The translations under genes and the position numbers were made by a program. From NCBI GenBank assembly GCA_963702005.1, contig OY969696.1:1-64000 (forward strand): a DNA stretch of 64,000 nucleotides, written 5' to 3'. Under the pieces are notes generated by a model, which did not search any database, had not been told where the DNA came from, and saw only the letters and a list, made by a program, of their open reading frames with translations. This DNA comes from Candidatus Aminicenantes bacterium. GTDB lineage: Bacteria > Acidobacteriota > Aminicenantia > Aminicenantales > JAFGBC01. Below, in pieces: positions 1-25,165 of the stretch. Every line of letters begins with the position of its first letter. The stretch's first letter is position 1.

Positions 1-1
1 C

Positions 2-2419
2 CGGGACTACGTGGTCGTCCTTGAAGCGGGCCAGGAGACGCCCCTGCCCTGGGCCAACGTCATCGCCAACCCCGCGTTCGGGACGGTGGTCACGGCCTCA
101 GGGTCGGCCTACACCTGGTCGGAGAACAGCCGCGAGAACCGCCTCACGCCTTTCGCGAACGACCCCGTGACCGACCCCACGGCCGAGGCGCTCTTCATCC
201 GCGACGATGAGAACGGAGAGACCTGGTCCCCCACGCCGGGCCCGATGCCCCGCACGGGCGGGGACGGTCGCTTCGTCATTCGGCATTCCGCCGGGCTGAC
301 TCGTTTCGCTCGCGCAGCGCACGGCTTGCGCCAAGACCTCGAGATATTCGTAGACGCGAAGGACCCGGTGAAATTCTCGCTGCTCACGCTCAGGAACGAA
401 AGCGGAAGGGCGCGTCGCCTGAGCGTGTTCGCCTACAACGAGTGGGTGCTGGGGCCGCCGTGGGCGGGCCAGGGCACGCACGTAGTGACTGAGCACGACT
501 CCGCGACCGGAGCGGTCCTGGCCAGGAATCCCTACAACCAAGAGTTCGCGGGGCGCGTGGCTTTCGCGCACGCGAGCGAAGGGCTGCGCTCGGCAACGGG
601 AGATCGCTTGTCGTTCCTGGGTCGCAACGGTTCCCTGGCGCAACCGGCGGCGCTCCGCCGTGAAGCCCTGTCGGGCCGCTTCGGAGCGGGGCTCGATCCC
701 TGCGCTGCGCTGCACGTCTCCGTCACTCTAATCCCGGGGGAGACGCGCCTCCTTGTGTTCTTGGTTGGGCAGGGGAAGGATGAGAACGAAGCCCGCGAGC
801 TTCTGGGCCGGCACGGTCGCGTGGACGCCGCGGAAATCGCCCGGGAGGCCGTGCGCCGGAGCTGGGACGGCATCCTCGACACGGTCCAAGTCCGTACGCC
901 GGACGACTCCTTCGACCTGTTGATGAACCGCTGGCTGCTCTATCAGAACGTGAGTTGCCGGCTATGGGCCCGGTCCGCTTATCACCAGCCGGGCGGCGCC
1001 TTTGGGTTCCGCGACCAGCTTCAGGACGTCATGGCTTTGACGCTGGCCCGGCCGGATCTCATCAGAGAACACCTGTTGCGAGCAGCCGGACGGCAATTCC
1101 TCGAAGGCGACGTCCAGCACTGGTGGCACGAGCGGAGCGGCCGGGGCACCCGCACGCGCTGTTCCGACGACCTGTTGTGGCTTCCCTACGCGGTTGCGCA
1201 CTACGTCCGGACGACGGGAGACGCGGGCGTCCTCGAAGAGCCGGCGCCGTTCCTGGAAGCCCCGCCGCTCGCTCCGGAAATACAGGACGCCTACGTTCAG
1301 CCCCGCATCTCGACCGAAAAGAGTCCGATCTTCGAGCATTGCCTGCGCGCCATCGATCGTGGACTGACCGCGGGCGCCCACGGCCTTCCCCTCATGGGGA
1401 GCGGGGACTGGAACGACGGCATGAACCGCGTAGGACGGGAAGGGCGCGGGGAGAGCGCCTGGGTGGGCTTCTTCCTCCACGTGGTCCTGAACGAGTTCGC
1501 GCCGCTCTGCGAAGCTCGGGGGGACCAGGCCCGGGCCGAGCGCTACCGCGGCGAGGCCCGCCGGCTCGGCAGCATTCTGGAGCAGACCTGGGACGGCGAG
1601 TGGTACCGGCGCGGCTATTACGACGACGGCAAGCTTCTGGGCTCGGCCCAGAACGACGAGTGCCGGATCGACTCCATCGCACAGTCCTGGGCGGCGCTCT
1701 CGGGCGCGGTTCCCGTGCGCTACGCGGAACGCGCCATGGACGCCGTCCGCACCCACCTGGTTCGGCGCGGGCCTCAGGTTATACTGCTGCTCACCCCGCC
1801 CTTCGACAAATCCATCCAGGATCCGGGGTACATCAAGGGCTACCCGCCCGGCGTGCGCGAGAACGGCGGCCAATACACCCACGGAGCTCTCTGGGTCGTC
1901 ATGGCCATGGCCCGGCTGGGCAGCGGCGACGAGGCGGTGGAGCTCTTCCACATGCTCAATCCCGTCAACCATACCAGGACCGCGGACGGTGTCGGGCGCT
2001 ACATGGCCGAGCCCTACGCCATCGCCGGAGACGTCCACGCCGATCCGGCACACGCCGGGCGCGGCGGCTGGACGTGGTACACCGGCTCCGCGGGCTTGAT
2101 GTACCGCGCGGGCCTCGAGAGCATCCTCGGGCTCCGGCGCCGGGGCTCGACCTTCGAGATGGACCCCTGCATCCCCTCATCCTGGCCCGACTACGCGATC
2201 GTCTGGCGTTTCGGCCGGACCCGCTACGAGATCGCGGTCTCGAACCCGGAGCGCCGCTGCCGAGGGATCGCGGAGGCCGAACTGGACGGAGCGCCGGTCG
2301 ATCCCCTATCCATCCCTCTCGCCGATGACGGCGGCACGCACCGAGTCCGGCTGGTGCTGGGAGACCGGAAGCTGCCCGTCCCTCCCGTTGCCGACCCGGG
2401 CGCCGTCGCTTCCGCTTGA
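2..2419 (+). CDS. GH94 glycoside phosphorylase domains (C-terminal part of a cyclic beta-1,2-glucan synthase/NdvB-like protein), 5'-partial
   Basis: Frame is open from the window start. Motifs [50 protein letters not shown] and WYTGSAG are typical of GH94. Confidence 0.9.
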
Positions 2420-2536
2420 ACCTTTGGATCCGGAGTCCAAGGGTCAGGCTTTTCAACTGACTCTTGAAATGGCGATTTCTATAGGCGTGGCGATCTGCTC
2501 TGCACTAGGTGTGGCCACTTGTAGTTCAGACCGCCG
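2420..2536. repeat. 117-bp direct repeat, copy 1 (tRNA-Arg anticodon arm plus att-arm-like segment)
   Basis: Identical by eye to 3589-3705 (acctttggatccggagtccaa...gttcagaccgccg). Confidence 0.9.
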
Positions 2537-2778
2537 TCAAGGAAAGCTGGCGGATGACCCGGGGTCATGCCGGGAGCATCTTCCTCATGGGGCTTCTCTG
2601 CGTGCCCATTTTTATTGCGGGCCTCCTTTGCTTCGGAGTGGGCGTCATCCCGACGATCATCTGGATAAGCTCTGGCTTCGCCGCGATGTATTTCGCCGTG
2701 AGCCAGGGTGAAGCCTCCCAGGCTGCGGCGCCTCCAGCTCCGGCGCCGGACGCCGCCGACTCGCGGGCCAGCGGCTGA
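2537..2778 (+). pseudogene. 3' fragment of an integral membrane protein gene
   Basis: AVKESWRMTRGH...GLLCFGVGVIP...AAMY resembles the C-terminal half of a polytopic membrane protein. It starts abruptly at the repeat end. Confidence 0.55.
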
Positions 2779-2796
2779 GTCCGGCGTTATCCGGAG

Positions 2797-2819
2797 TGGC
2801 GTGCCTGAGAGGATTCGAA
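2797..2819 (-). pseudogene. tRNA-Arg 3'-end fragment (T-loop to CCA), att-like
   Basis: Minus strand ttcgaatcctctcaggcacgcca matches the 3' end of the 3560-3609 fragment. Confidence 0.75.
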
Positions 2820-2820
2820 T

Positions 2821-3309
2821 TTATTTGCTCTTCTTCATTAGTAATCCTGCAAAGATGCCGAACAGCAACCCAACCATCGCGCCTAGCATTCCTCCGATAA
2901 ATCCCATGTAAGCAAACACATTAAACAGCATTGCGGGGATGCGTCCCGTGAAGTGAGGGATCCCCCATAGTTCCATGCTGACGTAAAAGATTTCACCCAA
3001 GAGGGCAAGCATGAGTCCCCCAAAAATCACCCCGAGTATCATCCCTTTAAGCATCATTAGGAAAAAATTGAGCTTCCCTGAGATGATCAGCCTGGCCATA
3101 TAGCTGAACGCGAACCAGCCGAGAATTGCCCCGCCGATCGCAAGCAAAACGGGGAAAAGTTGTCGGGAAATCCCTGAAAAGGCGGGGCTGGTATCTTTAT
3201 TAAGAATGGTAATGAATGTGAAAAATATCCCCAAACCGCTCCCTGCCACCGCACCAACCCATTTGCCGGTCCTAATGATCAGACTCTTTCTTTCCTGCTG
3301 TGTTTTCAT
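2821..3309 (-). CDS. hypothetical membrane protein (about 4 TM, Gly-rich helices)
   Basis: 162-aa hydrophobic ORF with an AGGAGG RBS. The stop codon abuts the tRNA fragment. Confidence 0.75.
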   Translation of the reverse strand: MKTQQERKSLIIRTGKWVGAVAGSGLGIFFTFITILNKDTSPAFSGISRQLFPVLLAIGGAILGWFAFSYMARLIISGKLNFFLMMLKGMILGVIFGGLMLALLGEIFYVSMELWGIPHFTGRIPAMLFNVFAYMGFIGGMLGAMVGLLFGIFAGLLMKKSK

Positions 3310-3559
3310 TTTTTCAGTCCCTCCTTAAAACTAAATAATGTGATGGCGCCCCCGCCGAGCCCCTCCCCGACGAAGAACAGCAAGAGGATAAAGAATAGCC
3401 CCAGGATGATGGCCGATACCATTCCTAGCCTTTGCGACCCCTATTCCAAGCTTACACCCAATATGAGGCACATCTTCCCGCCCGTCAAGTGGCGCAAGAG
3501 TCTAAGGAAGGCTTCCCCCATAAGTTGAGGGTTTGCCTGGAGCCACGGGGGGAATTAGG

Positions 3560-3609
3560 TGGCGTGCCTGAGAGGATTCGAACCTCCGACCTTTGGATCC
3601 GGAGTCCAA
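3560..3609 (-). pseudogene. tRNA-Arg(CCG) 3' fragment (anticodon stem through CCA), att-like
   Basis: Minus strand ttgga-ctCCGga-tccaa anticodon arm, then aggtc, ggagg-ttcgaat-cctct T arm and caggcacgCCA. D arm and 5' acceptor strand are absent. Confidence 0.85.
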
Positions 3610-3705
3610 GGGTCAGGCTTTTCAACTGACTCTTGAAATGGCGATTTCTATAGGCGTGGCGATCTGCTCTGCACTAGGTGTGGCCACTTGTAGTTCAGAC
3701 CGCCG
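3589..3705. repeat. 117-bp direct repeat, copy 2
   Basis: Matches 2420-2536. Confidence 0.9.
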
Positions 3706-3973
3706 GCTTGGTTTCCGGCAGGTCCTCGCCCGCTTTCTTGATGTATCTCCGGCCTTCCTCGTAGATGTCAAAATCCTCTTTCCTGTCCAGGCACACTTTT
3801 TTCCTCTGTCCATCGTCGGTCCGGAAGATTACAAGGTATGCGTGCTTGGTGAGAGTCCAGGTCTTCTTAGCCTCGACGGTCCCCGACCATTCCTTGCGGC
3901 GATCCCTTTTTCTCCTAACCCAGGGTAAGAAAACGAACCAGTCACCCAGGAGTTCAAGTATAAAATCAATCAT
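3695..3973 (-). CDS. small hypothetical protein with N-terminal hydrophobic segment and beta-rich basic domain
   Basis: 92-aa ORF with a GAAGGAGG RBS, directly downstream of 4001-4450. Confidence 0.7.
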   Translation of the reverse strand: MIDFILELLGDWFVFLPWVRRKRDRRKEWSGTVEAKKTWTLTKHAYLVIFRTDDGQRKKVCLDRKEDFDIYEEGRRYIKKAGEDLPETKPAV

Positions 3974-4000
3974 TTCGAACCCTCCTTCTCATCCGGCCCC

Positions 4001-4450
4001 TCACCAGTCTCGGGGCAGGGCCAATTGCCTATACTTGTTCCCTGCTTTAATTGCCAGAATTGCGGCGATCAGGTTCGCCCCAGCACATACCAACATCAAG
4101 ATCGCCTCTGCAGAAAATCCTTCATATTCATCCAGATAATAGACGGCACCGTTGAACACCATGAAGTCATGAAAAAGTACAAGGCCTGCAGCAAGATAGA
4201 GGAGTCCGGTGATAACTCCGCTGATAATCCTGCCACCGAGCTGGCTTAGAATGACACACACCAATAAGACAACCGCTGCCGCCAACAGGTATTTGAAAAA
4301 CATCCTCGAAGAATCAGCGGCGCCGTCTTTAATGGCCTCCGGATGCATATCAAGCCGGGGCACGAACAACACGGCCCATAAGGCGGTCACAACGATGACG
4401 ATCGCCGCTGCGATGTATACCGACCTTTGGCTGGGAATAGTCTTGGCCAT
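4001..4450 (-). CDS. hypothetical membrane protein (about 4 TM)
   Basis: 149-aa hydrophobic ORF with a GAGGAGG RBS. Confidence 0.75.
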   Translation of the reverse strand: MAKTIPSQRSVYIAAAIVIVVTALWAVLFVPRLDMHPEAIKDGAADSSRMFFKYLLAAAVVLLVCVILSQLGGRIISGVITGLLYLAAGLVLFHDFMVFNGAVYYLDEYEGFSAEAILMLVCAGANLIAAILAIKAGNKYRQLALPRDW

Positions 4451-4529
4451 CTCAGACCCCTCCTCTCTCGCTAATTAGCAGTATAAATCAGAATGGACAG
4501 GAAATTAAGAAAACAAATGGGGGGGAACA

Positions 4530-4574
4530 TGGCGTGTCTGAGAGGATTCGAACCTCCGACCTTTGGATCCGGAG
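4530..4574 (-). pseudogene. tRNA-Arg(CCG) 3' fragment (anticodon loop through CCA), att-like
   Basis: Matches 3560-3604 with one mismatch (gtgtctg vs gtgcctg). Confidence 0.8.
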
Positions 4575-5210
4575 GGCGATGGTCTTCCTTTCGATGAAAT
4601 TCGTTGACACGATGAAACCGTCGCCCTTTGGCTTCCGGGTGACGGCCAATTCCCCATCGGCGCCGAAACCGAGGACGCAGGCGTCGCCCGTCGCGTCCGC
4701 GAGCAGGTACTGCCCGGCGAACTTCCCGCTGTAGATCGTGCCCCAATCATAGGAGCGGGCCATGGCGATCGCTTCCTCGACCGTGGCGCATTTCCGCAAG
4801 ATGATCTTGTTGACGATCGCCTCCGAGGGCTGGATCCTTTCGGGGTATGTCTTGATGGGAATGTAGGGGAGCGCGTTCCCATCAAAGGCGAGCCCTTTTT
4901 CGTTGATCCCGCCTTGAGGTCCGAGGTCGTCGAAACCGACGCAGAGGACGCCGTATTTCCCGTCGCCGACCGGTTCGACCCAGACATAGGTCAGGGGGTT
5001 CCTCCAGTCCTCGTTATTGCCGAAGAACACGGATTCCTCCTTGGCCACGCTGAAGATCGTGCAGGAGCCGGGCATGGAGAGGTTACGGCGGAGGTCCCGA
5101 ACCTCAAACGGATAAGGTCTCGTCAGGAGGAAAGCAGAAGATCCGACGATCGCCACCCCCCCCAGGATCGACGCAAGCCAATGAGCGCGTGAACGCGGAT
5201 CGAAGAGCAT
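4575..5210 (-). pseudogene. C45/choloylglycine-hydrolase-type Ntn hydrolase, 3'-truncated
   Basis: SCTIF nucleophile motif, FGNNEDW, GGINEKGL, TVEEA, YLLADATG and STNF. Shortly after STNF the frame runs into the tRNA fragment. Confidence 0.7.
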
Positions 5211-5253
5211 ACCCTCCCTCCGCCAGGAGACCGGGATTTCAATGATCTCTATA

Positions 5254-5584
5254 AATTATAGGATTTTGCTTTTTCCGCGGCGTGTGGAATAGCCGCTCGG
5301 CACGATAATTCTCCGCTCCTAACCATGGTGGAAATATACCGCCGACCTCGCTGGGATGTCAACAACCTCTCACCACGGCACCGAAGAGCCTATTAAGGCG
5401 AAAAGCCTTCCCGCGCCGGCCAAATGACGACAGAGTTCCGCTCCCGAAGATAAGCCAATGATCATAAATAGTCCACGTTCTCTTCGGCCGCACTCATGGA
5501 GACGCTAACACGTTTCCATGAGTACGGGCCGAAGCGGCCGCCAGGAGCGCTGCCTGCTCGAAGACATAGGACGGCGGCGGCTTG
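5254..5584 (-). mobile_element. IS91/ISCR-like oriIS end remnant, copy 1 (331 bp)
   Basis: Direct repeat of 8482-8812 with 3 substitutions seen. The minus strand ends ...AAAGCAAAATCCTATA, similar to the IS91/ISCR oriIS terminus, and encodes a transposase-like tail KPPPSYVFEQ. Confidence 0.7.
5333..5362 (-). promoter_or_regulatory. sigma70-type outward-facing promoter in repeat copy 1
   Basis: TTGACA-18 bp-TATATT, conserved in all three copies. Confidence 0.6.
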
Positions 5585-6081
5585 GCAACGTCGAGACGGC
5601 GCCGGGCCTGGCGACGGCCCGCGAGCGGGGCCTCGAGGCGCTCTGGCTGAATCCCAAGTCGTATGCCACCCGCGAGGACTACGACACGGCCCTGTTGGCC
5701 GAGGTTCAAAAGCGGGACGTCGACCTCATCTGCCTGGCCGGCTACATGAAGATCGTGACCCCCCTCCTCTGCCGGGCCTTCGTCCACCGGATCATGAACA
5801 TCCACCCCGCCCTCCTCCCCGCCTTTCCCGGACTCCACGTCCAGCAGAAAGCCGTCGAGTGGGGCGTCCGCTATTCGGGGGCGACGGTCCACTTCGTTGC
5901 CGAAGAAGTCGACATGGGGCCGATCATCCTGCAGGCCGTCGTGCCCGTCCTCCAGGACGACGGCGAGGAGACCCTGATCGCGCGCATCCTCGAGCAGGAG
6001 CACAAGATCTACCCCGAGGCCGTCCGGCTCTTTTTCGAGGGACGGATCGAGGTCCGCGGCCGCCGCGTCTTCATTCGTTGA
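5585..6081 (+). pseudogene. purN: phosphoribosylglycinamide formyltransferase, 5'-truncated
   Basis: LAGYMKI, NIHPALLPAFPG, GATVHFV, DMGPII and EQEHKIYP are present. The N-terminal SGxGSN loop is missing and replaced by repeat-derived sequence. Confidence 0.8.
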
Positions 6082-8425
6082 TGATGGAAAAAACTCCGTC
6101 ACTCAAGTCATAGGGAATCCCGTCTGAGGCCTCCCTTATCCTAATCAGGCAGCGGGCCGACGGGGAATCGGGAACGACCCACGCATAAGAGCCCGCGTTC
6201 TTTGTTGAACGAATAATCGTCCTAAAGGCCGTTCCTCCGTCCGTTGAATAGGAAATCCACACGTTTCCGACTTTCCCGGCCGTTTTCCACTGTATGGTCT
6301 GCCGGGAGCCGACTTTCCAGCGCTCTCCTCCCCCGGGCGAAATCACCTGAATCAAAGGAGTCGGGGGATTTTCCATCAGTTTGGTCAAGAAGACATTGAA
6401 GGCCCCGCTGTTTTGACTCCTGAACGGATGTTTTATTGGAAAATCCGAAGAACATGTAGTCCCCGTTATATAGGCCGCCCCATTCCCGTCAATAACAATT
6501 CCATGCGCTTCGTCAGATAAGCTGCCTCCCAGATAGGTGGAAAATGCGAGCGTCTCTCCATCGGGCATGAACTTTGTAATAAACGCATTGAATCTCATGG
6601 CTTTGAGTTTGCCCTGGAAGGGATTCTTCACCGGAAAATTTGAGGACCTCGTGTATCCCGCAACATAAGCGCATCCCATATCGTCGACGGCGATGCCCCC
6701 GCCGTAATTTTCTTTCGTCCCGCCCAAATACGTGGAATAGACGAGGGCCGTTCCCGCCGGCGAAATTTTCGTTACAAAAACATCCCCATATTTGTATCTG
6801 CGCTTCTTCTGGAACGGGTTCTTGAGAGGAAAGTCCAAGGACGTTGTTTCTCCTGTCACGTAAGCGGCGCCGCTTCCGTCCACTGCGATAGACTTGCTCC
6901 ATTCCCACTCGCCGCTGCCGCCGAGGTAGCTGGAATAAGAGAGCGATTTTCCCGACGGTGACAGCTTGGTCACAAAGACATCAGACCGGCCCTTGAGCGT
7001 CTTTTGAAACGGGTTCTTTAGAGGAAAATCTGAAGAGAACGTGTTCCCCGTTACATAAGCGCTGCCGGCGCTATCTACGGCAATTTTAATGCCGCTTTCA
7101 CTATCGTCGCCCCCAAGATAAGTGGAATAAATGCGGGAATTTCCATCCGGAGCGAACTTGGCTACATAGGCATCACTTTTACCACGAGCGGTTTTTTGAA
7201 AAGGATTTTTTAGGCGGAAATCCGGAGAAGATGTACCCCCGGTGACATAAACGCCGCTCGTGTCAACGGCGATTCCATTCCCGCTATCAGTACTGCTTCC
7301 GCCGAGGTAAGTGGAAAAAACGAGATTATTGCCGGCGGAGGTTAGTTTGAAAAGAAAAGCGTCATTTTCTCCCCTGAGTGCTCGCTGCAATGGATTTTTC
7401 AACGGGAAATCCAGGGAATTCGTGCTGCCGATCACATAGGCGCATCCGTTTCCGTCCACGGCGATATCCCAGGCCATATCAGTACCCCCGTTTCCTCTTT
7501 CACTCCCGCCAATATAGGTCGAATAAACGAGGGAACTCCCTCCGGGCTTGAATTTGGTGATAAAAACATCTTCATATCCTTTATTCTCGGCCTGGATGGG
7601 ATTTTTCAGCGGGAAATCCAAGGACGTCGTTTCGCCGACCACATAGGCGGCCCCAGTGCCGTCAACGGCGACCCCACGACCGATGTCTTGACTTTCCCCT
7701 CCAAGGTAGGTGGAGTGCATCAGGACAACCGGATCTATAATCAGCTCGAGGCTTTTATCATAGTCAGCCGCATAAAAACCCCAGGTATTTTGGCCGATTT
7801 CCTTGAATTGGACTTCGACGGGTTTTTTCATCTGAAAACTCAAGGGTTTCTTGTGGACAAGCTCCCCGAATCGGGTTTCGACAAGGAGATTCCCTTCTTC
7901 ATCAATTTCCGTACTCTTGATATCCTTGTATTCAAATCGGATATCCTCGACATGAGCGCCGGGTTTTACCACCCAATCATATTCGATCTGCTTCTCGATG
8001 CCATAGACCTTGAGATCGATCCCGGGATAGAGGTTTTTATAAAGTATTGCGAGCGACGTCGAGATGTCTTTTTTCCATTTCGCGGGGTCATCGCCGATGA
8101 AATAGTTGGCAAGGTGTTCCGTCGGCTTCAGCGAAAGGACTTCCGGATTTTTATTGGCGTTCAGGAAGATCAGCTTGGAAACGTCTCTTTTTGAATTGGC
8201 TGTCGAATCAAACACCAGCCCGTTTTTCGTCATCCAAAGGGTGTAGCGCGATGTCTTCGCATAGAACAGAGCCCGTTCATCCGCCTGCCCCTTGTTAGGG
8301 ACGAAATACAGCGGGACTTTTCCATAATCCGGAGAGATCGTCGGCCTTTCCGCGGATCGGATATCGGGCGGCCTCTGGAGGGGGAGGAGCAGAAATAAGC
8401 CTAACGTATAAATTGATTTTTTCAT
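6071..8425 (-). CDS. secreted SBBP beta-propeller repeat protein with C-terminal Ig-like domain
   Basis: Signal-like MKKSIY start, FVPNKGQ, LIIDP, repeated YSTYLGG / IAVDxxGxAYVTGxTxSxDFP units, C-terminal SPGGGERWKVGS...GSYAWVVP. Confidence 0.88.
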   Translation of the reverse strand: MKKSIYTLGLFLLLPLQRPPDIRSAERPTISPDYGKVPLYFVPNKGQADERALFYAKTSRYTLWMTKNGLVFDSTANSKRDVSKLIFLNANKNPEVLSLKPTEHLANYFIGDDPAKWKKDISTSLAILYKNLYPGIDLKVYGIEKQIEYDWVVKPGAHVEDIRFEYKDIKSTEIDEEGNLLVETRFGELVHKKPLSFQMKKPVEVQFKEIGQNTWGFYAADYDKSLELIIDPVVLMHSTYLGGESQDIGRGVAVDGTGAAYVVGETTSLDFPLKNPIQAENKGYEDVFITKFKPGGSSLVYSTYIGGSERGNGGTDMAWDIAVDGNGCAYVIGSTNSLDFPLKNPLQRALRGENDAFLFKLTSAGNNLVFSTYLGGSSTDSGNGIAVDTSGVYVTGGTSSPDFRLKNPFQKTARGKSDAYVAKFAPDGNSRIYSTYLGGDDSESGIKIAVDSAGSAYVTGNTFSSDFPLKNPFQKTLKGRSDVFVTKLSPSGKSLSYSSYLGGSGEWEWSKSIAVDGSGAAYVTGETTSLDFPLKNPFQKKRRYKYGDVFVTKISPAGTALVYSTYLGGTKENYGGGIAVDDMGCAYVAGYTRSSNFPVKNPFQGKLKAMRFNAFITKFMPDGETLAFSTYLGGSLSDEAHGIVIDGNGAAYITGTTCSSDFPIKHPFRSQNSGAFNVFLTKLMENPPTPLIQVISPGGGERWKVGSRQTIQWKTAGKVGNVWISYSTDGGTAFRTIIRSTKNAGSYAWVVPDSPSARCLIRIREASDGIPYDLSDGVFSIINE

Positions 8426-8481
8426 CCCGCTTCCTTGTTGATGAGTCTCTGGAGCTTCGATCCGACCCCGACCCAAACCAG

Positions 8482-8902
8482 AATTATAGGATTTTGCTTT
8501 TTCCGCGGCGTGTGGAATAGCCGCTCGGCACGATAATTCTCCGCTCCAAACCATGGTGGAAATATACCGCCGACCTCGCTGGGATGTCAACAACCTCTCA
8601 CCACGGCACCGAAGAGCCTATTAAGGCAAAAAGCCTTCCCGCGCCGGCCAAATGACGACAGAGTTCCGCTCCCGAAGATAAGCCAATGATCATAAATAGT
8701 CCACGTTCTCTTCGGCCGCACTCATGGAGACGCTAACACGTTTCCATGAGTACAGGCCGAAGCGGCCGCCAGGAGCGCTGCCTGCTCGAAGACATAGGAC
8801 GGCGGCGGCTTGTCTGCGACAAACGTCAATCCGAGGTGATCGATGATCCTGTCCACCACGGAGTAATCAGTGATGAAGGCGACGACCTTCATCATCTCGC
8901 CT
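8482..8902 (-). mobile_element. IS91/ISCR-like remnant, copy 2: transposase C-terminal fragment plus oriIS end
   Basis: Minus strand encodes GEMMKVVAFITDYSVVDRIIDHLGLTFVADKPPP, resembling the C-terminus of IS91-family (Y2) transposases, followed by the 331-bp repeat. Confidence 0.7.
8561..8590 (-). promoter_or_regulatory. outward-facing promoter in repeat copy 2
   Basis: TTGACA-18 bp-TATATT pointing into the SBBP gene. Confidence 0.6.
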
Positions 8903-8991
8903 ATACGGAGCTAAACTATCCTCCTTTTTGCGCGGATTTCAATATCTTCGTCATGAACTTAATTATTTGCGTCCGAAGATGTCCGGTCTTA

Positions 8992-10093
8992 TTGACATAC
9001 GCATAAATAATGGAATCTTTCCTTGAATTGAGCTATACTATGAGCCATGAGACCTCCAGGAAGCCCCCAGCAACTCGAACAGCGTCGCCACCGGGCCATC
9101 CGATTGCTCCAAAAGGGATTGTCGATGGCCGAGGTGGCCAAAGAAGTCGGGGCCTCGATCAGCTCCGTCTTCCGATGGCAACACGCCTTCCACAAGAGCG
9201 GCTCCAAAGGACTGGAATGCGTTCCCGCGACTGGACGCCCTCCCAAACTCTCTCCCCGGCAGAAAAAGAAAGTCATCGGCCTACTCTTGCGCGGTCCCGT
9301 AGCGTTCGGTTATTCGACGGATCTTTGGACCACGCGGCGAGTCGCCGAAGTGATTGGCAGAGAATTTCGGATCGATTATCATCCCAATCATATCTGGCGT
9401 GTCCTAATGGGATTGGGATGGAGCTGCCAGAAGCCGGAACGTCGGGCGCGGGAACGCGACGAAGCGACCATCGAAGACTGGAGAAAAGTCCGCTGGCCGG
9501 CCATAAAAAAAAACTCTGGCACGTGGCGCCCATCTGGTCTTTCTGGATGAAAGCGGCTTTCTCCTGCTTCCGCATGTCGTTCGGACGTGGGCTCCCCGGG
9601 GCCAGACGCCCATCCTTAAACATTTTTATCGGAGAGATCGGGTGTCGGTGATTTCGGCGTTGACACTCTCCCCGAAGAAACGCCGGTGCGGACTGTTTTT
9701 CCGGGTTCATCCCCGGAACATCAAATCGGACGAGGTCGTCGCTTTTCTTCGAGGGTTGTTCCGTCATCTGCGTGGTCCGATCGTTCTGTTGTGGGATCGG
9801 GGCTTGATCCATAGAGGGAAAGCCGTGAAGACCCTTTTGGCCCATCGACAGAAAGTCCAAGAGGAATGGTTCCCGGCTTATGCTCCAGAGTTGAATCCCG
9901 CGGAATACGTTTGGGCGCAATCGAAAAGGAAATTGGCGAATGGATGTCCGCGCGGTACGGCAGAGCTGAATCTGATGGTGCACGCCAGCCTCACCGAGAT
10001 TGATTCGTCTCAAAAACTGCTCCGCTCTTGCCTTTTCGCCTCGACCCTTTTTAAACCGAAAGAACTATGTTCCATTATTTATGCGTAACTCAA
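8992..10093 (+). mobile_element. IS630-family insertion sequence
   Basis: Inverted repeats ttgacatacgcataaataatggaa / ttccattatttatgcgtaactcaa, flanked by TA at 8990-8991 and 10094-10095. Confidence 0.92.
9047..10088 (+). CDS. IS630 transposase in two frames joined at an A9 run (9505-9513)
   Basis: HTH ORF 9047-9550 (GRPPKL, LWTTRRV). The DDE part FLDESG, LLWDRG, YAPELNPAEYVW lies in the +1 frame. Confidence 0.85.
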
Positions 10094-11460
10094 TAATTGC
10101 GAACACTAATCCAATCGATATTGCCAGGGCTACTAATATGCAGTAATACCACTTATCAGGCATTAAGCTCGTCAAGCCGAAAAATATTGAAAAGAAGATG
10201 GCAACGATAACGCCGAACAAAGTCAGGGTGTTGGAATCCCACTGGCCCGATTGCGTCTTTTTGATGTCTTCCAAATCAGCTTTCCATTTCTCTTCAAATT
10301 TTGCTTCTTGAAGTTTCTCTTGCTGGCGCTCCCAGGCCTTTTCTTCGAAAAGATCCCAGTAATAAGAGATACTGCTATCCAGAACAGCCTCGTCCCCTTG
10401 TCCCCAAGAAAGAAGAATGTTTCTCAGCTCTTCGCTGATCTGTCTTGCCTCAATTCTTATCCTTTCCTCTTTCTCCTCGAAGTCTAGGCTTGCTCCGTGG
10501 ACTCTTCTGCTCTCATAGCTCGCTATTCTCTCATAATAGGCGGTGTTGAAAAGCTCGTCCTCCAGCAATTTTTGCTTCCCCGGATCAGCGGCATAATCGG
10601 TTTTGATCTTCTTAATTTCTCTGTGGAATATTTTTTCCATTGCGTACAGCTCAAGAAGCTCAATCCCGTAAACCGGTCTAAACTCATCTTCGTAATCTGG
10701 CTCTACAATTGTATAGGGCCCAAAAAAGCTATGATGTTGCTTGGCGATAATATCTATAATTGATTTGCCTTTTCCTTCGCTGTTCTGCGCGGAACTGATA
10801 ATGATTTCGATCTGACGAAATATATTAAGCTTGGAAAACACATTAAGAGCAATGTCTCTGGCAAAGTAATCCTCCGGCTCAGGCGGCTCATCCCAAGGCT
10901 TTCTCGTGATCTGCCACTTCGCCTGATACACCTTGCCTATAAAGTTGGTTATGCAACCCAGGCTGTAATCAAATACTCCCCACTTTCCTTCTTTCTTCAA
11001 AAAACCGGTCAGAATTCCTTCTATTCTTTGCCATTCGTAACTCGATTTGGAGTTTAACGGCTCAGCAATCTCTTTTAATAAACTGGCGCTTTTACCTCCC
11101 CACACGTCATGATAACGAGTGTCGAAAACTGCCGAGACGGCTCTCCTTCCGCTTCTATGCTCGATAAGTTTCAGTTGGGTCGATCGCTCGGTGATAGCCG
11201 GCAATCGCTCGTCAATTTTCACTTCTCTTGTGCTTTCTTTTAGAACGACTTCGTATCTTTCTAACACTCCCATCGGCTTCCGATAAGGCAGTAGCATGCA
11301 ATAATCAAAGCGCTTGCGCTCTTCTCCTTTACTTGCCATTGCGTTTCTCCCCGCATCCATTTTCATGCCTAAAAGAACATGATCGTCCGGGCCTTACAAT
11401 TCATATTTTATATACATTATGCTATAACTTCTAAAAGATTAATTCGTTTAAAAAGAGCTG

Positions 11461-11522
11461 ATGGACAAAAGCAAGCCCTCGGCGTCTTGATTCGGGTCTC
11501 AACCGAAGACCGGGCCAAGGAG
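11461..11522 (+). pseudogene. decayed N-terminus of a large serine recombinase
   Basis: atggacaaaagcaagccc-tc-ggc gtc ttg att cgg gtc tca acc gaa gac cgg gcc aag reads MDKSKP(V)GVLIRVSTEDRAK with one base missing. RVSTEDQ is the catalytic motif of this family. Confidence 0.5.
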
Positions 11523-11726
11523 TATAGTCTTTACAGGCACGAGAGACCAATAAAATCTATTGTCCAAATAATCTGAGTAGCGCATCTAATAAAATCATAA
11601 TTGGCCTTTTAATAGAACCAAGGACAGGAACACTCATTAATTTCAGATAATTCATCTAGACCCAAAACGGAAAGGTCTTTTTTGGAGTCCGTTGTCGAGA
11701 TAAAATAATGTGAGTAGTCAGTTCCT

Positions 11727-12857
11727 TTATTTTATTCCCAGTGACCTGCCCAACCAGCCAAGCATCAAATCCAATGGAAGACAAATAGTGACTCCCCAAT
11801 CTAATTTGTTTTTGGAGACCGTGGGCACTGTTTTGATGCTGCCTGTGACCTGGTCGCCCGGCTTAAATCCGCTTTGCAACTCCTGTGTTGCACCAAAACG
11901 GGCCAAGACGCTAATCGAAAAATATGTGAAATCGTAACCAAGCCCAAAATAGATCTTTTTAAATATCGCGCTAGATAGCTCGGTGGCCAGATTCAATTGA
12001 ATACGCCCACAAGAAAATATCTCGCCTTCAGGTTCAAAGCCGAAAGGGTATACCGTCCCGACAAAAATCATAGTTACGTTTCGTAACATATTTTCCATGA
12101 CGATGGCATTGACATCATTGGGACTGGCATACCCCAGGTTGTACTCCACCGACTTTTTGAAAGGAATGAATGTCCCCATATGCGAACCGAGGTAATAACG
12201 GGCCCTCGTTTTCAGGCTCTCAGCAAAAATGACTTTATCTAGTGAAGAGTCTTGATCAGCACCAGTAAACTCATGCGTGGGGTTAAATATATTTTTATTA
12301 TTGCTTTCAGATCCTTGAACAAAAGATGTGGAGCTTTGGCTCGATCTTTCTGATTTTAAAGCCTGCCCGTTTGTTGAGCGGGTAACCTTTATCTGATATG
12401 TCGTTCCACTTTCAGCGAGGATAAAAGACGACGTAAGCGTAGGCGGTGCGGCTATTGCTCTCTCAATTGGCACTGTTTTTCCAGTAAAAATTGGGACTAA
12501 TTCATAGCTGCTTTTTTGGGGGATGATATCTATTTTAAATTTATCTTTATATTTATTATCCAATATTATCGTTATCGTGACCTGAGTTCCAACACTCAAT
12601 GCTTTCGGAAACGCTTTTCCGCCCGGCAAGCCCACTATGAATGGATCTAGGGGAATATCATTTTTCGGCGAATCTTCTGATGGCGGATAAATCCGGCAGT
12701 TATTCCACAATACTTCTGCCAGTAGCCCATCACGATCCATCACAATTTTAAGGTCTTTAGGATAAGAAGAATTCGGAATCTGATTTTCGTTTCCTTTGGC
12801 TACAGCATACGAGAACAATCCAAAGAGTGCGAGCACTAAAAAGATTATCTTTTTCAC
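11727..12857 (-). CDS. AT-rich hypothetical exported protein, possible C-terminal beta-rich membrane domain
   Basis: GTG start with a GGGAGG RBS and signal peptide MKKIIFLVLALFGLFSYAVA. Confidence 0.75.
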   Translation of the reverse strand: MKKIIFLVLALFGLFSYAVAKGNENQIPNSSYPKDLKIVMDRDGLLAEVLWNNCRIYPPSEDSPKNDIPLDPFIVGLPGGKAFPKALSVGTQVTITIILDNKYKDKFKIDIIPQKSSYELVPIFTGKTVPIERAIAAPPTLTSSFILAESGTTYQIKVTRSTNGQALKSERSSQSSTSFVQGSESNNKNIFNPTHEFTGADQDSSLDKVIFAESLKTRARYYLGSHMGTFIPFKKSVEYNLGYASPNDVNAIVMENMLRNVTMIFVGTVYPFGFEPEGEIFSCGRIQLNLATELSSAIFKKIYFGLGYDFTYFSISVLARFGATQELQSGFKPGDQVTGSIKTVPTVSKNKLDWGVTICLPLDLMLGWLGRSLGIK

Positions 12858-12989
12858 GGTTCCTCCCCATATTTAGCTTTACATTTTAGTCGCGGAAGTT
12901 TAATTAAAATTGAAAACGCGGGAACAGCATTATATCGTCTGCATTCCTTCTTTTTATGCTCGATAAGGAAAGAATTTAGCCTAACAGAA

Positions 12990-13105
12990 AATTATAGGAT
13001 TTTGCTTTTTCCGCGGCGTGTGGAATAGCCGCTCGGCGCGATGATTCTCCCCTCCTCGCCATGATGGCAATATACTGCCGACTTCGCTGGGATGTCAACA
13101 ACCTC
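12990..13105 (-). mobile_element. IS91/ISCR-like oriIS end remnant, copy 3 (diverged, shorter)
   Basis: Same terminus aattataggattttgctttttccgcggcgtgtggaatagccgctcgg. The promoter TTGACA-18-TATATT is kept at 13069-13098. Confidence 0.7.
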
Positions 13106-13215
13106 CCTTTCCAAGGAGGCCCGATTGGAGGTTGCTGGGGTTCTCGGTTTCGCGAGATGTGCGATAATAGATGTATGAGCCGAGATATGAAATTGACCGT
13201 AGAAGGAGGAAGGGT

Positions 13216-15222
13216 GTGGCTCAATCAATAATGATGATGGCCGCCGTCTTGTGCGCGACCTCGTTGGCGCCTGGAGGGCAAGCGGTCCGGGGCGGGTCTG
13301 AGCCGGCAGAGAGAAATCCACGCCCGCCCGTCGTCTTTCGCGTCGCTGCGGACCGGCTCTTGAGCAGCAGGCCGATCAGCAAACTCATCTACGGCAACTT
13401 TATAGAGCTTGGCTTCGCCAGGCAGGTGGATGGCATGTGGGGCCAGATGCTCTATAACAGGAGTTTCGAGAACCTTCCACCCGCGAGCGCGATCGCGAGG
13501 CAGGAGCGGGGCCCGGCGAACGACGGCACGGCGGCCTGGTGGCACAGCGGGTACGAAGAGAAGCCTTGGTACACCTTCACTGCCGCGGGCAAGACCGACC
13601 TGCCGACCGACCGGCCGAATGACTATTGGGGATTCTATCACGGAAAAATAGCTGCCCGGGTTTCCGCTCAGAAGGAGGGTGCCTGGGGACTCGGTCAGGA
13701 CGGCCTAGGCCTCCAAGCGGGTGCCGGGTATTTCTTCCGCGGGTTTTTAGCGCATGACTATGGTGATCCCGGCAAGGGCCAGCACACGGTTACGGTCAGG
13801 CTGGTCGCTGAGAACGATCCGGGACGCGTCATTGACAGCATCGAAGCTTCCTTCGGCACGCAATTCACCGAATGCACGGGCACGCTCAGAAGCCGCGATT
13901 TCAACGGACGTGCCAGTTTTCAGCTGGTGGCGACGTCGCCCGGTGAGTTTGTAGCGGACGGTTTCGAGCTTACTCCTTCGGATGCCGTCCACGGCTGGCG
14001 CAGGGACATCATCGCCGCCATGAAGCGCGTCCGTCCCGCCATGCTTCGTTTTCCCGGCGGTTGCTTTGCGAGTTACTATAACTGGAAGGACGGCATCGGA
14101 CCGCGCGATGACCGCATGCCGCGGCAGAGCGAGTTCTGGGGCGGCCTTGAATACAACGACGTCGGGACGGACGAGTACCTTGACCTTTGTCAGGAGGTCG
14201 GCGCAGAGCCGTTCCTTGTCGTCAATGTCATGACGGGAACACCCCTCCTGGCGGCCGAATGGGTCGAATACTGTAACGGCTCCCGCGAAACGAAGATGGG
14301 CGGCCTCCGGGCTTGGAACGGGCACGAAAGAGCAAGGAAAGTGACGTACTGGGAGCTGGACAATGAGCCTGACCGTAAATACGGTCCGGAACAGTATGCC
14401 CGCAGGGTGGCGGCATTTGCGCGAGCGATGAGGGCGGTGGATCCATCAATTAAACTGGCGATCGAAGGCTACGACAGCTACGCCGATCAATGGAACACCA
14501 TCTTCGACATCTGCGGGCAGGAAATCGATTTCGTGTCGGACCGGTACTACGCGGAGCGGGACTTCGCGCGGGATGTTCCGATCCTCGAGGCTTACCGGAA
14601 GAAGACCGGCCGGAGGATCGGATTGTGCAATACCGAGTGGATCGCACCGTTCGAGGTCCCCTCCGGCGAGGCCGAAGCCGCCGCGATCCGGGACCGATCC
14701 AGGCTGCAGCGCTGGTCCTATGCGTTGAACGCCGCGACGGTCCTTCAGGGGTTCTGGCGGAATGCAGACTGGATGGACTTCGCCAACTTCAACAACCTGG
14801 TCAACACCTGGGGACAGAATGTCATCGAGTCCGCCAAGACCGGGGCATGGTTGTCATGCGCCGGCCGATTGTTCGAGTTCTTCACGGACTCCAGGGCTTC
14901 GTGGCCCGTGGAAATCACGCCCGCCGAACAGGGCGGCAAGATCCACGCTGCCGCGGCGCTCTCCGGATCTAAACAAGAGCTCGTCATCAACATTGTGAAC
15001 ATGGGTGAAGCGGCGAGTTTGGATGTTGCCTTCGGCGGCGGATCGCCCGGTTGGAGGGCAAACTCAGCGCGGGGTCTCGCTGCTCCGTCCCTTATTTCGC
15101 GCAACTCCGAGTCCGACCGGAATGTTGTGACGCCCGTTCAGCCGGTGACTGAGATGCGGGGAGGTCACCTCATTATTCAGGTCCGGGCGTACTCAATCTC
15201 CGAAGTCGTTCTTTCAAAATAG
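13216..15222 (+). CDS. GH51-like alpha-L-arabinofuranosidase, secreted
   Basis: IYGNFIE, LRFPGGCFAS, VGTDEY, WELDNE (acid/base), NTEW (nucleophile). GTG start after AGGAGG. Confidence 0.8.
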   Translation: MAQSIMMMAAVLCATSLAPGGQAVRGGSEPAERNPRPPVVFRVAADRLLSSRPISKLIYGNFIELGFARQVDGMWGQMLYNRSFENLPPASAIARQERGPANDGTAAWWHSGYEEKPWYTFTAAGKTDLPTDRPNDYWGFYHGKIAARVSAQKEGAWGLGQDGLGLQAGAGYFFRGFLAHDYGDPGKGQHTVTVRLVAENDPGRVIDSIEASFGTQFTECTGTLRSRDFNGRASFQLVATSPGEFVADGFELTPSDAVHGWRRDIIAAMKRVRPAMLRFPGGCFASYYNWKDGIGPRDDRMPRQSEFWGGLEYNDVGTDEYLDLCQEVGAEPFLVVNVMTGTPLLAAEWVEYCNGSRETKMGGLRAWNGHERARKVTYWELDNEPDRKYGPEQYARRVAAFARAMRAVDPSIKLAIEGYDSYADQWNTIFDICGQEIDFVSDRYYAERDFARDVPILEAYRKKTGRRIGLCNTEWIAPFEVPSGEAEAAAIRDRSRLQRWSYALNAATVLQGFWRNADWMDFANFNNLVNTWGQNVIESAKTGAWLSCAGRLFEFFTDSRASWPVEITPAEQGGKIHAAAALSGSKQELVINIVNMGEAASLDVAFGGGSPGWRANSARGLAAPSLISRNSESDRNVVTPVQPVTEMRGGHLIIQVRAYSISEVVLSK

Positions 15223-15377
15223 CCCCCCGGCGCCATTGTCGGCATCCAAGGCTGTAACGACAAAGCTCGCAACTCTCGGCATGAAGGGTTGCCTGATGAG
15301 CCGGATCGCATCGATTGACAATGGCAGGCTGCCGACATTATTTTAGATCCGTCCGATTAAACAGGAAAGGTGCCTTT

Positions 15378-17810: not shown

Positions 17811-17834
17811 AATTTTTTCTTAGAAAGGATCGAT

Positions 17835-19943: not shown

Positions 19944-20007
19944 GCCACCGTCATTTTGGGCTATAATCCGCATAAATGATGACTTCTGAATTTCGAGGAG
20001 GAAGTGA

Positions 20008-22938
<2,931 letters not shown>

Positions 22939-23152
22939 CGGGGCCACGCACCAACGAGCAAACGTCAACAGCTCTCCTTTCTCGAACATAAAAATATTCC
23001 GCGCCCAACCTTCGCGACGGTCAATTGGCTTTGGGCCGCGTTCTTTTCGAATTCCTGACAATCTCTTCACAGACCCCTGACAACTCGCTCCCCCGGAAGC
23101 CGTATCCTTTCGGCGTAAGCGAAGATCAGCCCGCTTACGCTGGGAGGGAATC

Positions 23153-24130
23153 ATGAATGTCTTCGTCACCGGCGCCGCCGGATTCATCGGAAGTCACCTG
23201 GTTGAGGCGCTTGTCTCGGCCGGGCATGATGTTACGGCCCTCGTAAGACCGGGAGAGAACTCGGCTCGAATTGCGGGACTGGCCGTCCGTCTCGTCGAAG
23301 GGGACGTGACCGATATTCGGTCCCTTCCCGACGAGGCCAAGGAGGCCGAAATCGTCTATCACTTGGCCGCCGTTCTGGGCGGCCAAGATCCTCGACTCTA
23401 TTATGATGTGAATTTTGGGGGAACGCGAAATCTCCTTGAAGTCTGCCGGGCCCATCGAGGGAAAATGAAGCGGTTTCTGTTGGTCTCGAGCATCGCCGCG
23501 GCCGGTCCGTGCCGCCGGGAAGAATTATTGACCGAGGACTCGCCCTGTCATCCCGTTTCCGATTATGGTCGGAGCAAGTTGATGGCCGAAAATTTTCTTA
23601 AAACGAGCGGTCACGGGATTCCGTTTACGATTGTCAGGCTTCCCCTCGTCTATGGCCCCCGGAGCGATGGGGGCCTTCTATCGTATTTCAAAATGGCGTC
23701 CAAGGGGATATGCGTCCGGCCGGGAAACGGATTCACCAGCGTCGGCTTCGTCCGGGACATCGTGGAGGGAATCATTCTGGCCGCAGAAAGCCCAAAGGCC
23801 GCGGGACGGTCCTATTTTTTGGGGGACGGAGCCTATTCTTGGGAGGAGATCATCCGCTATGTCTCGGCCGCGGTAGGGAAAAAGACCTTACGCCTCGTCA
23901 TCCCTTATCCGAGCTTGTATTTGATCGCTCCCTGGGCCGAGCTCTTCGGCGGGATCGCGCGTCGCCCCCCATTGATCTCGTTTCACAATATTTTCTATCT
24001 CAAGCACCGCTATTGGCGTTGCCGGACGGATCGAGCCAGGAGCGAGATCGGTTTTATGCCGCGGGTTCCTTTCCCGAAGGGACTGGCCATTACCTATGCC
24101 TGGTACAAGGCGAATGGATACGTCGCTTGA
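23153..24130 (+). CDS. NAD-dependent epimerase/dehydratase (extended SDR)
   Basis: TGAAGFIG, HLAA, SSIAA, YGRSK. Confidence 0.9.
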   Translation: MNVFVTGAAGFIGSHLVEALVSAGHDVTALVRPGENSARIAGLAVRLVEGDVTDIRSLPDEAKEAEIVYHLAAVLGGQDPRLYYDVNFGGTRNLLEVCRAHRGKMKRFLLVSSIAAAGPCRREELLTEDSPCHPVSDYGRSKLMAENFLKTSGHGIPFTIVRLPLVYGPRSDGGLLSYFKMASKGICVRPGNGFTSVGFVRDIVEGIILAAESPKAAGRSYFLGDGAYSWEEIIRYVSAAVGKKTLRLVIPYPSLYLIAPWAELFGGIARRPPLISFHNIFYLKHRYWRCRTDRARSEIGFMPRVPFPKGLAITYAWYKANGYVA

Positions 24131-25125: not shown

Positions 25126-25165
25126 CGGAGAATCACGCCGGCCGGACGGCGGTGTCAACAAAGGT

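Follow-up and report, generated by a model that had tools for sequence, protein, structure and literature searches.

A probable mosaic of tRNA-bounded units and IS91-family ends within an acquired island of a Candidatus Aminicenantes genome

The first 64,000 nucleotides (nt) of contig OY969696.1 of a Candidatus Aminicenantes bacterium (GCA_963702005.1), hereafter the window, include a region at positions 2420–13105 in which small genes lie between 3' fragments of tRNA-Arg(CCG) and ends of an IS91-family insertion sequence (IS). A first-pass annotation had read this region as a dedicated, integron-like platform for gene accretion. In our assessment, the region is probably the decayed middle of a horizontally acquired 31.3-kb island and a mosaic of the remains of two unrelated kinds of mobile element, namely units bounded by tRNA attachment (att) sites and transposase-less IS91-family ends with an outward-facing promoter. 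Taken as a whole, this reading, which we hold with moderate confidence, makes the region an instance of a known way of gene capture and activation rather than a new integron-like machine. The anatomy described in the first-pass annotation stands: the four tRNA-Arg(CCG) 3' fragments, the three oriIS-like modules with an outward promoter-like site, which belong to the IS91 family, the seven minus-strand open reading frames (ORFs), and the two plus-strand gene scraps are all there and cannot be put down to chance matches, and the window contains neither a tyrosine integrase nor a Y2 transposase domain.

The right part of the region carries three copies of the oriIS-side end of an IS91-family element, all on the minus strand (Table 1). 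Copies 1 and 2 are 99% identical over 331 nt (5253–5584 and 8481–8812), and copy 3 is 91–92% identical over 117 nt. Each ori end contains the promoter-like sequence TTGACA-18-TATATT, which matches a sigma-70-like consensus at 11 of 12 positions and points to the left. These are the three best such sites of the region, which has 14 sigma-70-like sites in all versus 8.8 ± 2.6 in shuffled sequences. An ORF starts 44 nt below end 1, approximately 50 nt below end 2, and 133 nt below end 3. The tail peptide of copies 1 and 2 matches the C-terminus that follows the only match to the transposase domain Y2_Tnp (PF04986) in the genome, a remnant open frame of 223 amino acids (aa) at 4.15 Mb, and the window itself has no Y2 domain. 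The domain was found at E ≤ 1e-20 in 15 of the 61 genomes of the order, with open frames of at least 421 aa in 10 of the 21 matches listed, and ORFs of 422–423 aa were read at three loci (G017, G031, and G043). A full-length transposase with the same tail, for which the first-pass annotation had advised a search of the genome, is present in relatives, where the intact enzyme has 422–428 aa and is followed by the same promoter-bearing end. Together with this family-level Y2_Tnp transposase, of which the window copies are stumps, the conserved oriIS end without a terminal inverted repeat places the element in the IS91/ISCR group (ISCR, insertion sequence common region).

We aligned 20 regions downstream of transposase tails from 12 genomes, including this one. 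Nineteen of the 20 share the −35 and −10 boxes approximately 130 nt past the stop codon, and 19 also share a terminal motif (...GAAAAnnAAAnTCyTAT) approximately 60 nt past the boxes and 230–290 nt past the stop codon, where the homology ends. The conservation of the boxes shows that the predicted outward promoter, approximately 70 nt from the terminus, belongs to the oriIS-side end itself, which is also the situation in ISCR1. Four copies in G056, which are 75–90% alike over approximately 1 kb only, did not define the terIS end. An exact 34-mer of the ori end was found in one metagenome contig, and an exact 25-mer in none of the genome contigs. A structured leader or ori hairpin was rejected because the DNA folds score like those of shuffled sequences (z of 0.04 to −0.44). 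Copies 1 and 2 also contain a 51-nt hairpin-forming insertion in the transposase tail (5485–5535 and 8713–8763), which is absent from a 95%-identical copy on the metagenome contig L078 and resembles sequences at 11 further sites of the genome (990181, 1028648, 974996, and others). This insertion may be a small element resembling a miniature inverted-repeat transposable element or a repetitive extragenic palindromic sequence.

The ori ends are not confined to the region. Searches of this genome with hidden Markov models found 23 solo ends with a narrow model and 35 with a broad one, giving at least 35 dispersed copies. Based on crude longest-ORF gene calls, 23 of the 32 ends with an intact terminus precede a co-oriented ORF start (within −130 to +300 nt), compared with 16.6% of 20,000 random positions. 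The three ends of the window, accordingly counted as 3 of at least 35, appear to be typical copies of a portable promoter that is spread over the whole genome, which speaks against the dedicated platform of the first-pass annotation. The promoter of an ori end probably transcribes the gene just outside that end, as POUT does in ISCR1. The interpretation in the first-pass annotation is supported in part, in that each ori end faces a co-oriented gene, the repeats are of the tRNA att type and the oriIS type, and the window holds no recombinase of either system. The passengers are not all intact cassettes, as two of the seven are truncated, and the tRNA part has no promoter with 10 or more matches.

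The left part of the region (2420–4574) holds the tRNA fragments. Within positions 1–16000, ARAGORN and Rfam detected no intact tRNA; the Rfam tRNA model scores 26.4 bits at 3563–3632, under its gathering score of 29, and the only other Rfam match at E ≤ 1 in this range was a spurious one to a long noncoding RNA. The fragments are foreign to the tRNA of the host, whose own tRNA-Arg(CCG) lies next to glnS at 2366448–2366523, 2.37 Mb away, and differs in the acceptor stem (CAGCCGC versus CAGGCAC in the fragments), with an identity of 88%. The copies of 45–51 nt start at the anticodon loop or stem, the 24-nt copy starts at the T-loop, and the 3' limit is the CCA. Tyrosine integrases are described as crossing over at the anticodon loop and at the T-loop or its junction, and a displaced 3' piece of a tRNA gene as the accepted mark of an island (PMC4383910); the window copies begin at these subsites. 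No tyrosine recombinase (PF00589) occurs in positions 1–64000, as none of the 12 matches in the genome falls there; the search did not extend to serine recombinases. Tandem units that lack an integrase and are bounded by att sites are described as cis-mobilizable elements (CIMEs) and their build-up as accretion (PMC5704250), and the lack of PF00589 in the window is consistent with CIME-like units. The array is damaged. Its leftmost fragment is cut midway and adjoins the stop codon of GH94, a stretch of 117 nt is present twice with 100% identity, and the rightmost fragment adjoins a truncated gene.

Fragments of this tRNA recur in other genomes. A 45-mer taken from them was found with up to three mismatches in 15 of the 61 genomes of the order, with 3–8 copies in each genome of family f4, and it is exact in genera g4 and g10 of that family, where it belongs to the intact gene (G025 and G005). 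The G005 contig C17 shows the native form, in which two blocks (4.9 and 2.9 kb) follow the intact tRNA and both end in a fragment (45 and 43 nt). The six ORFs of these two blocks have no integrase domain according to Pfam and instead encode an efflux operon and HEAT-repeat proteins, again consistent with CIME-like units. In G025, the order is glnS, tRNA-Arg(CCG), 6.8 kb, and the GH94 gene, with the 3' end of the tRNA toward GH94, an orientation the same as in the window. The arrangement typical of a tRNA island, an intact tRNA with a displaced co-oriented fragment bounding the island, is seen in G005:C17 and G025 and not in the window. Homologues of the 92-aa and 149-aa genes of the window also lie beside tRNA-Arg fragments, at 2.218 Mb in this genome, in G001 (contig C192), and in G028 (contig C9, and C7 for the 92-aa gene). 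At 2217.5–2218.5 kb in this genome and in G001:C192 they form single-gene units of approximately 580 nt bounded by fragments, in a gene order unlike that of the window.

The fragments are thus unlike the tRNA of the host and identical to the intact gene of f4, where blocks occur in place, which points to an array built elsewhere. Most likely, it was made at the tRNA-Arg(CCG) of another lineage and imported as passenger DNA. The first-pass annotation had instead suggested building by a tRNA-targeting integrase acting in trans; construction at this locus is not supported, as the site is a spacer between convergent genes without a tRNA and the fragments match the tRNA of another family. Several observations touch on such arrays. 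The 95–99-nt segment at 3605–3703 has a second, 100% identical copy at 2445–2536, and its fold together with the adjoining tRNA fragment is a tRNA-like cloverleaf that lacks the D-arm; contigs of the metagenome runs X1 and X2 have joints from 3604/3609 to 3704 that skip 94–99 nt. An IS91 tail fragment lies at 2367972–2368046, 1.4 kb downstream of the intact tRNA-Arg(CCG)/tRNA-Lys(CTT) pair of the host. On L078, positions 780–2140, just outside the ori end, hold the 3' parts of a Thr-CGT-like tRNA, of a Sec-like tRNA whose extra arm is long, and of tRNA-Arg-CCG. All three point in the same direction, with short stretches between them and a single small membrane ORF, and together they form a series of att scars that stem from different tRNAs. 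In another family, the stretch G028:C9:27000–53000 (loci L047 and L048) shows the mixture of the window on a larger scale, with six co-oriented IS91 tails in 26 kb, a tRNA-Arg fragment, and one homologue each of the 92-aa gene and the 149-aa gene.

The contig has 4,309,361 bp and a G+C content (GC) of 60.4%. The first 1089 nt of the contig recur as its last 1089 nt, and the GH94 gene continues across the joined ends; the molecule is therefore circular, and where the contig begins is arbitrary. The island starts at genome position 4302130, crosses the point where the contig ends meet, and stops at window position 25159 (boundary 25159/25160), and it fills the interval between two conserved genes that converge on each other. 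The site lacks the island in the congener G001, where the orthologues of 4302129 and window position 25160 lie approximately 25 nt apart on contig C26, and in G017, a genome of another family in which the two flanks are approximately 740 nt apart; neither relative has a tRNA gene at this site. The island consists of an 8.4-kb GH94 gene, the mosaic at 2420–13105, and a glycosidase/peptidase/epimerase block that reaches 25159, and successive blocks have a GC of 68, 50–57, 67, 49–53, 55, 43, and 60%. At the DNA level, the GH94 gene is 88–96% identical among genomes of at least five families, with 90–96% in the comparison with four other families; its neighboring genes are 65–86% identical (65–78% in that comparison), and the background identity between G000 and G001 is 81–89%. 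The edges of the GH94 homology are sharp, with one shared start point and an end at the stop codon or approximately 17 nt past it. Its distribution across at least five families looks like recent horizontal exchange of a single gene. The gene itself (window 1–2419 plus genome 4302280–4308272) is cyclic-glucan-synthase-like.

Examination of the junctions points to decay. Those at 2419/2420, 4574/4575, 5584/5585, and 8905/8906 cut genes or tRNA fragments at arbitrary points. On the transposase side, ori copy 1 is fused after 331 nt to a purN fragment, copy 2 after approximately 425 nt to the 3' flank of a block of 43% GC, and copy 3 after 117 nt to the right block of the island. On L078, a microhomology of 9 nt joins a 95%-identical ori end to the final 93 nt of a GH94 gene, which suggests that deletion joints are common around these ends. 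Plain decay of nested elements, which the first-pass annotation had kept as its alternative, fits both the truncated genes and the arbitrary cuts. Contigs from four other studies (runs) were aligned to the region. The X1 contig matches 6003–8479 at 99.3% identity and includes 32 nt or more of the repeat, and 6003–6699 is covered by an X2 contig. Contigs of X2 and X3 stop at 8510, after 30 nt of the repeat, and the X7 contig matches 12994–14500 at 95.7% but carries 457 nt of other DNA on the left. Another X2 contig starts at 5555, 30 nt on the repeat side of 5584/5585, and was not counted as bridging. Independent contigs thus support the junction of purN with the SBBP gene, that of the SBBP gene with ori end 2, and ori end 3 with its right flank, and misassembly is unlikely at the two bridged junctions.

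From these observations, the left part would be the remnant of a tandem array of small, integrase-less, CIME-like units, bounded by direct repeats of the 3' part of tRNA-Arg(CCG) that start at the two positions where tyrosine integrases usually cross over. This array would have been built at the tRNA-Arg(CCG) of another lineage, imported, and later trimmed by deletions. The right part (4575–13105) would consist of three transposase-less oriIS ends, cut at 117, 331, and approximately 425 nt, with each stump joined to unrelated DNA by a deletion on the transposase side; the purN fragment at copy 1 would derive from a congener. The co-oriented tandem most likely arose in one of two ways, with decay thereafter: by ISCR-like capture, through rolling-circle read-through and circles, which is plausible for the right half, or by homologous recombination between the 99%-identical 331-nt repeats that flank a unit of 3228 nt. 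That unit, which holds the purN fragment and the SBBP gene, could have been acquired by integration of a circle through one homologous crossover, by ISCR-like capture of a circle, or by sequential one-ended transposition.

Several points weigh against this reading. The target tetranucleotide of IS91 (CTTG/GTTC) was not seen beside the ori ends; the flanks read AATT+CTGG, AATT+TATA, and AATT+TTCT in the window and vary among the 20 aligned copies, CCCT or CCTT stands beside the end in 7 of the 20, and this clade may use another tetranucleotide. The single-stranded ori ends fold no better than shuffles, in the range of z given above, and the co-orientation count depends on crude gene calls. For the left part, the tRNA sequence is the sole pointer to the donor lineage, the 92-aa and 149-aa genes were not found at the DNA level in the f4 genomes searched, and the same 45-mer also occurs as fragments in families f7, f9, and f3. 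The share of the words of the region found in any one public run is at most 0.32, the four runs aligned do not cover 2421–3388 or 10165–13000, a gap that speaks neither for nor against the assembly, and the junctions 2419/2420, 2536/2537, and 2795/2796 and the 43%-GC block are without independent support. Finally, three ori ends standing 44–133 nt upstream of co-oriented starts are more order than pure decay predicts, and the X7 relative breaks exactly at ori end 3, which might reflect some ongoing process directed by the ori ends.

A process of this kind is at the center of an alternative for the right half, in which one-ended rolling-circle insertions would have taken place one after another beside resident ori ends. 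Each unit, comprising one ori end with what remains of its element and the DNA taken up past the lost terIS, would have formed in a donor with the transposase acting in trans and then entered directly outside a resident ori end, so that the newest unit stands on the left. Such an array would serve as a docking platform, in effect what the first-pass annotation had proposed, for the right half. Consistent with this, the three ends share one orientation and are complete up to an identical terminal base, and each directly adjoins the distal end of the neighboring block; the rightmost unit (ori end 3 plus 13106–25159) stops exactly at the island boundary; and ori end 3 is the most diverged copy, kept by the 95.7%-identical relative with other DNA to its left. 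A partial ori module (E 5e-7) lies at the 5' boundary of the GH94 block in G001 (contig C228), but the look-alike at the left edge of the island in this genome is weak and not significant, and no IS91 tail was found within 5 kb upstream of the GH94 block in G025, G005, G017, G018, or G016. Runs of co-oriented tails occur elsewhere (six in 26 kb in G028:C9, three in 7 kb in G023, and two in each of two places in G056), but the genes after the ends are not co-oriented in G023. One-ended transposition is described for the IS91 family as 1–14% of events, with the tetranucleotide beside oriIS retained (PMC13181058), whereas the ends in the window share no tetranucleotide and the genome has no intact transposase. 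Moreover, canonical rolling-circle capture takes DNA from the transposase side and not the promoter side, so that each unit would have to end by chance 44–133 nt upstream of a gene start, and the 331-nt repeats around 3228 nt can equally result from a single homologous crossover. We consider this account unlikely. Its bolder form, in which solo oriIS ends are active docking sites where a transposase in trans nicks the resident end and joins incoming rolling-circle products, so that promoter-equipped genes accumulate head to tail, appears quite improbable; the same holds for its extension to a rolling-circle counterpart of the integron, coupled to imported arrays of tiny integrase-less tRNA-att cassettes.

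The platform of the first-pass annotation, on which an integrase and an IS91/ISCR transposase in trans would actively exchange single-gene cassettes with their own promoters, draws on real features. All seven ORFs are co-oriented, fragment-bounded single-gene units of approximately 580 nt exist at the paralogous locus in this genome and in G001:C192, the order of the 92-aa and 149-aa genes differs between the two loci, and the blocks that lack an integrase beside the native tRNA of G005 imply that recombination acted in trans. The locus, however, has no tRNA or attB in relatives, its fragments mismatch the tRNA of the host, the 64 kb contain no PF00589 integrase, and fragments and genes alike are cut at positions that are not att sites. 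With genes of the tRNA part that lack a promoter of at least 10 matches and ori ends that are dispersed throughout the genome rather than local, such a platform is very unlikely. An assembly artefact, in which reads of several organisms were joined through repeats at the contig start, deserves less credence still and seems highly improbable. The jumps in GC between blocks, the repeats of a kind that misleads assemblers, the position within 13 kb of the contig start, and the two stretches without independent cover could be taken as its signs, but the start of a circular molecule is arbitrary, with GH94 running through the 1089-nt overlap. In addition, contigs of other studies bridge purN/SBBP and SBBP/ori end 2 at 99% identity and carry ori end 3 with its right flank, and the unrelated metagenome contig L078 has the same kinds of parts together.

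Table 1. Features of the region 2420–13105 and of the adjoining island blocks, in window coordinates.
Feature	Position	Strand	Remarks
GH94 gene, 3' part	2–2419	+	Pfam GH94 domains; left island block; 8.4 kb whole, crosses contig junction
tRNA-Arg(CCG) 3' fragment 1, anticodon-loop-proximal part only	2420–2444	−	Cut at junction with GH94 stop codon
Fragment 1 plus 92-nt segment	2420–2536	−	100% copy of 3589–3705 (117 nt; repeat family D4)
Scrap, C-terminal part of small membrane protein	2509–2778	+	No Pfam, NCBIfam, or PADLOC match
tRNA-Arg 3' fragment 2, 24 nt, T-loop to CCA	2796–2819	−	Repeat D6; T-loop-type att scar
162-aa ORF, predicted membrane protein, no family	2821–3309	−	
tRNA-Arg(CCG) fragment 3, 51 nt, anticodon stem to CCA	3559–3609	−	100% identical to intact tRNA of G025
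Segment of ~95 nt between fragment 3 and 92-aa gene	3610–3705	−	Present or absent in metagenome relatives
92-aa ORF	3695–3973	−	Weak DUF7489 match (Pfam E 1.8e-4, below cut-off)
149-aa ORF, membrane protein	4001–4450	−	Homologue at paralogous locus is a fragment-bounded single-gene unit
C45/AAT-type hydrolase gene	4488–5210	−	3'-truncated at 4574/4575, reads on into tRNA fragment
tRNA-Arg(CCG) fragment 4, 45 nt, anticodon loop to CCA	4530–4574	−	One mismatch
Ori end copy 1	5253–5584	−	Promoter plus 331 nt of element, last 24 transposase codons
−10 boxes of the three ori ends	5333, 8561, 13069	−	
purN, 5'-truncated	5585–6081	+	Formyl_trans_N positions 38–181 of 181
SBBP beta-propeller/DUF7948 protein, 786 aa	6071–8431	−	Full length relative to paralogues
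Ori end copy 2	8481–8905	−	~425 nt, last 56 transposase codons, 51-nt hairpin insertion
IS630-family insertion sequence	8989–10099	+	Pfam HTH and DDE_3; inverted repeats 8980–9015 and 10070–10105
433-aa ORF, 43% GC, no family	10065–11366	−	3' end cut by IS630, whose end supplies last codons
376-aa ORF, signal-peptide-like start, 43% GC, no family	11727–12857	−	
Ori end copy 3	12989–13105	−	117 nt, promoter plus terminal part only
Island right block	13106–25159	+	GH51-like, DUF2961, M14 peptidase, two epimerase genes

The genes between these remains are of diverse kinds (Table 1). The truncated hydrolase gene matches positions 4–145 of 225 of the Pfam AAT model and positions 85–242 of 313 of the NCBIfam C45 model. 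The purN scrap is 92.7% identical to the purN of G001 versus 88% to the purN of this genome itself. The other plus-strand scrap (2509–2778) has a 69% DNA match in G016, approximately 5 kb from the GH94 gene of that genome. The IS630 copy, which the first-pass annotation did not mention, has a 100% identical twin at 1997103–1998213. PADLOC gave no match for the seven window proteins tried, and NCBIfam gave sub-threshold matches only, for two of eight. Several paralogues of the SBBP gene (e.g., at 2019619, 1794728, 4126066, and 4129275) have an ori-type promoter module in front, and one (1998454–2000451) lies 240 nt from the second IS630 copy.

The region illustrates how uncultured bacteria of sediments and wetlands assemble and express foreign genes. 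A rolling-circle element has left behind dozens of short stumps with a predicted portable promoter, most of them in front of genes, and mini-units bounded by tRNA att sites appear to move between families as passengers of larger islands. For annotation, the repeated "promoter plus leader" here should not be taken for the signal of a regulon, nor the tRNA fragments for a sign of integration at this place. Were solo ori ends indeed docking sites, they would provide a second, integrase-free route to cassette arrays, which the evidence here does not establish.

Among known systems, the integron resembles the region in its short co-oriented gene units between repeated sites of a recombination type, but the analogy drawn in the first-pass annotation fails for every defining feature tested. 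With regard to intI, attI, and the promoter Pc, the window has no tyrosine recombinase, as judged by PF00589 and not by a specific intI model. The repeats at the unit borders are of two types, tRNA 3' fragments and IS91 ends, and not attC-like imperfect palindromes, as judged by the Rfam search at E ≤ 1 and not by a dedicated attC covariance model. Promoters stand before single units, and there is no common Pc. CIMEs and tandem islands are closer, since direct repeats of a tRNA 3' part, starting at the anticodon loop or T-loop, bound blocks without integrase or transfer genes head to tail. In contrast to them, the window has no intact tRNA gene, its site is not a tRNA locus, its fragments are foreign to the tRNA of the host, and its units are of 0.4–1 kb with one or two genes and partly destroyed.

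IS91, IS801, and IS1294 have distinct oriIS and terIS ends, mobilize adjacent DNA by read-through past terIS, and are described as needing no more than approximately 80 nt of the ori end in cis (PMC13181058). The 422–428-aa Y2_Tnp proteins of the relatives agree with this group, whereas the absence of CTTG/GTTC beside the ends and the weak predicted subterminal hairpin do not. In ISCR1, an oriIS region of 232 bp carries the promoters PCR1-1 and PCR1-2, with variable genes downstream in the same direction (PMC6218425). Unlike ISCR1, the element here has a single near-consensus promoter approximately 70 nt from its end, is present as stumps of 117–425 nt in the window and as at least 35 dispersed copies without the expected tetranucleotide, has no link to the 3' conserved segment of class 1 integrons, and resides in an uncultured environmental lineage with cargo other than resistance genes. 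The two share a rolling-circle transposase of the HUH/Y2 family, an oriIS downstream of the transposase gene with outward promoters inside it (here predicted), unrelated co-oriented genes just outside the oriIS end, a terIS side lost by deletion, and repeated copies that separate different captured genes. Both the IS91/ISCR ends with outward promoters and the CIME-type units are thus known systems, here in a little-studied lineage.

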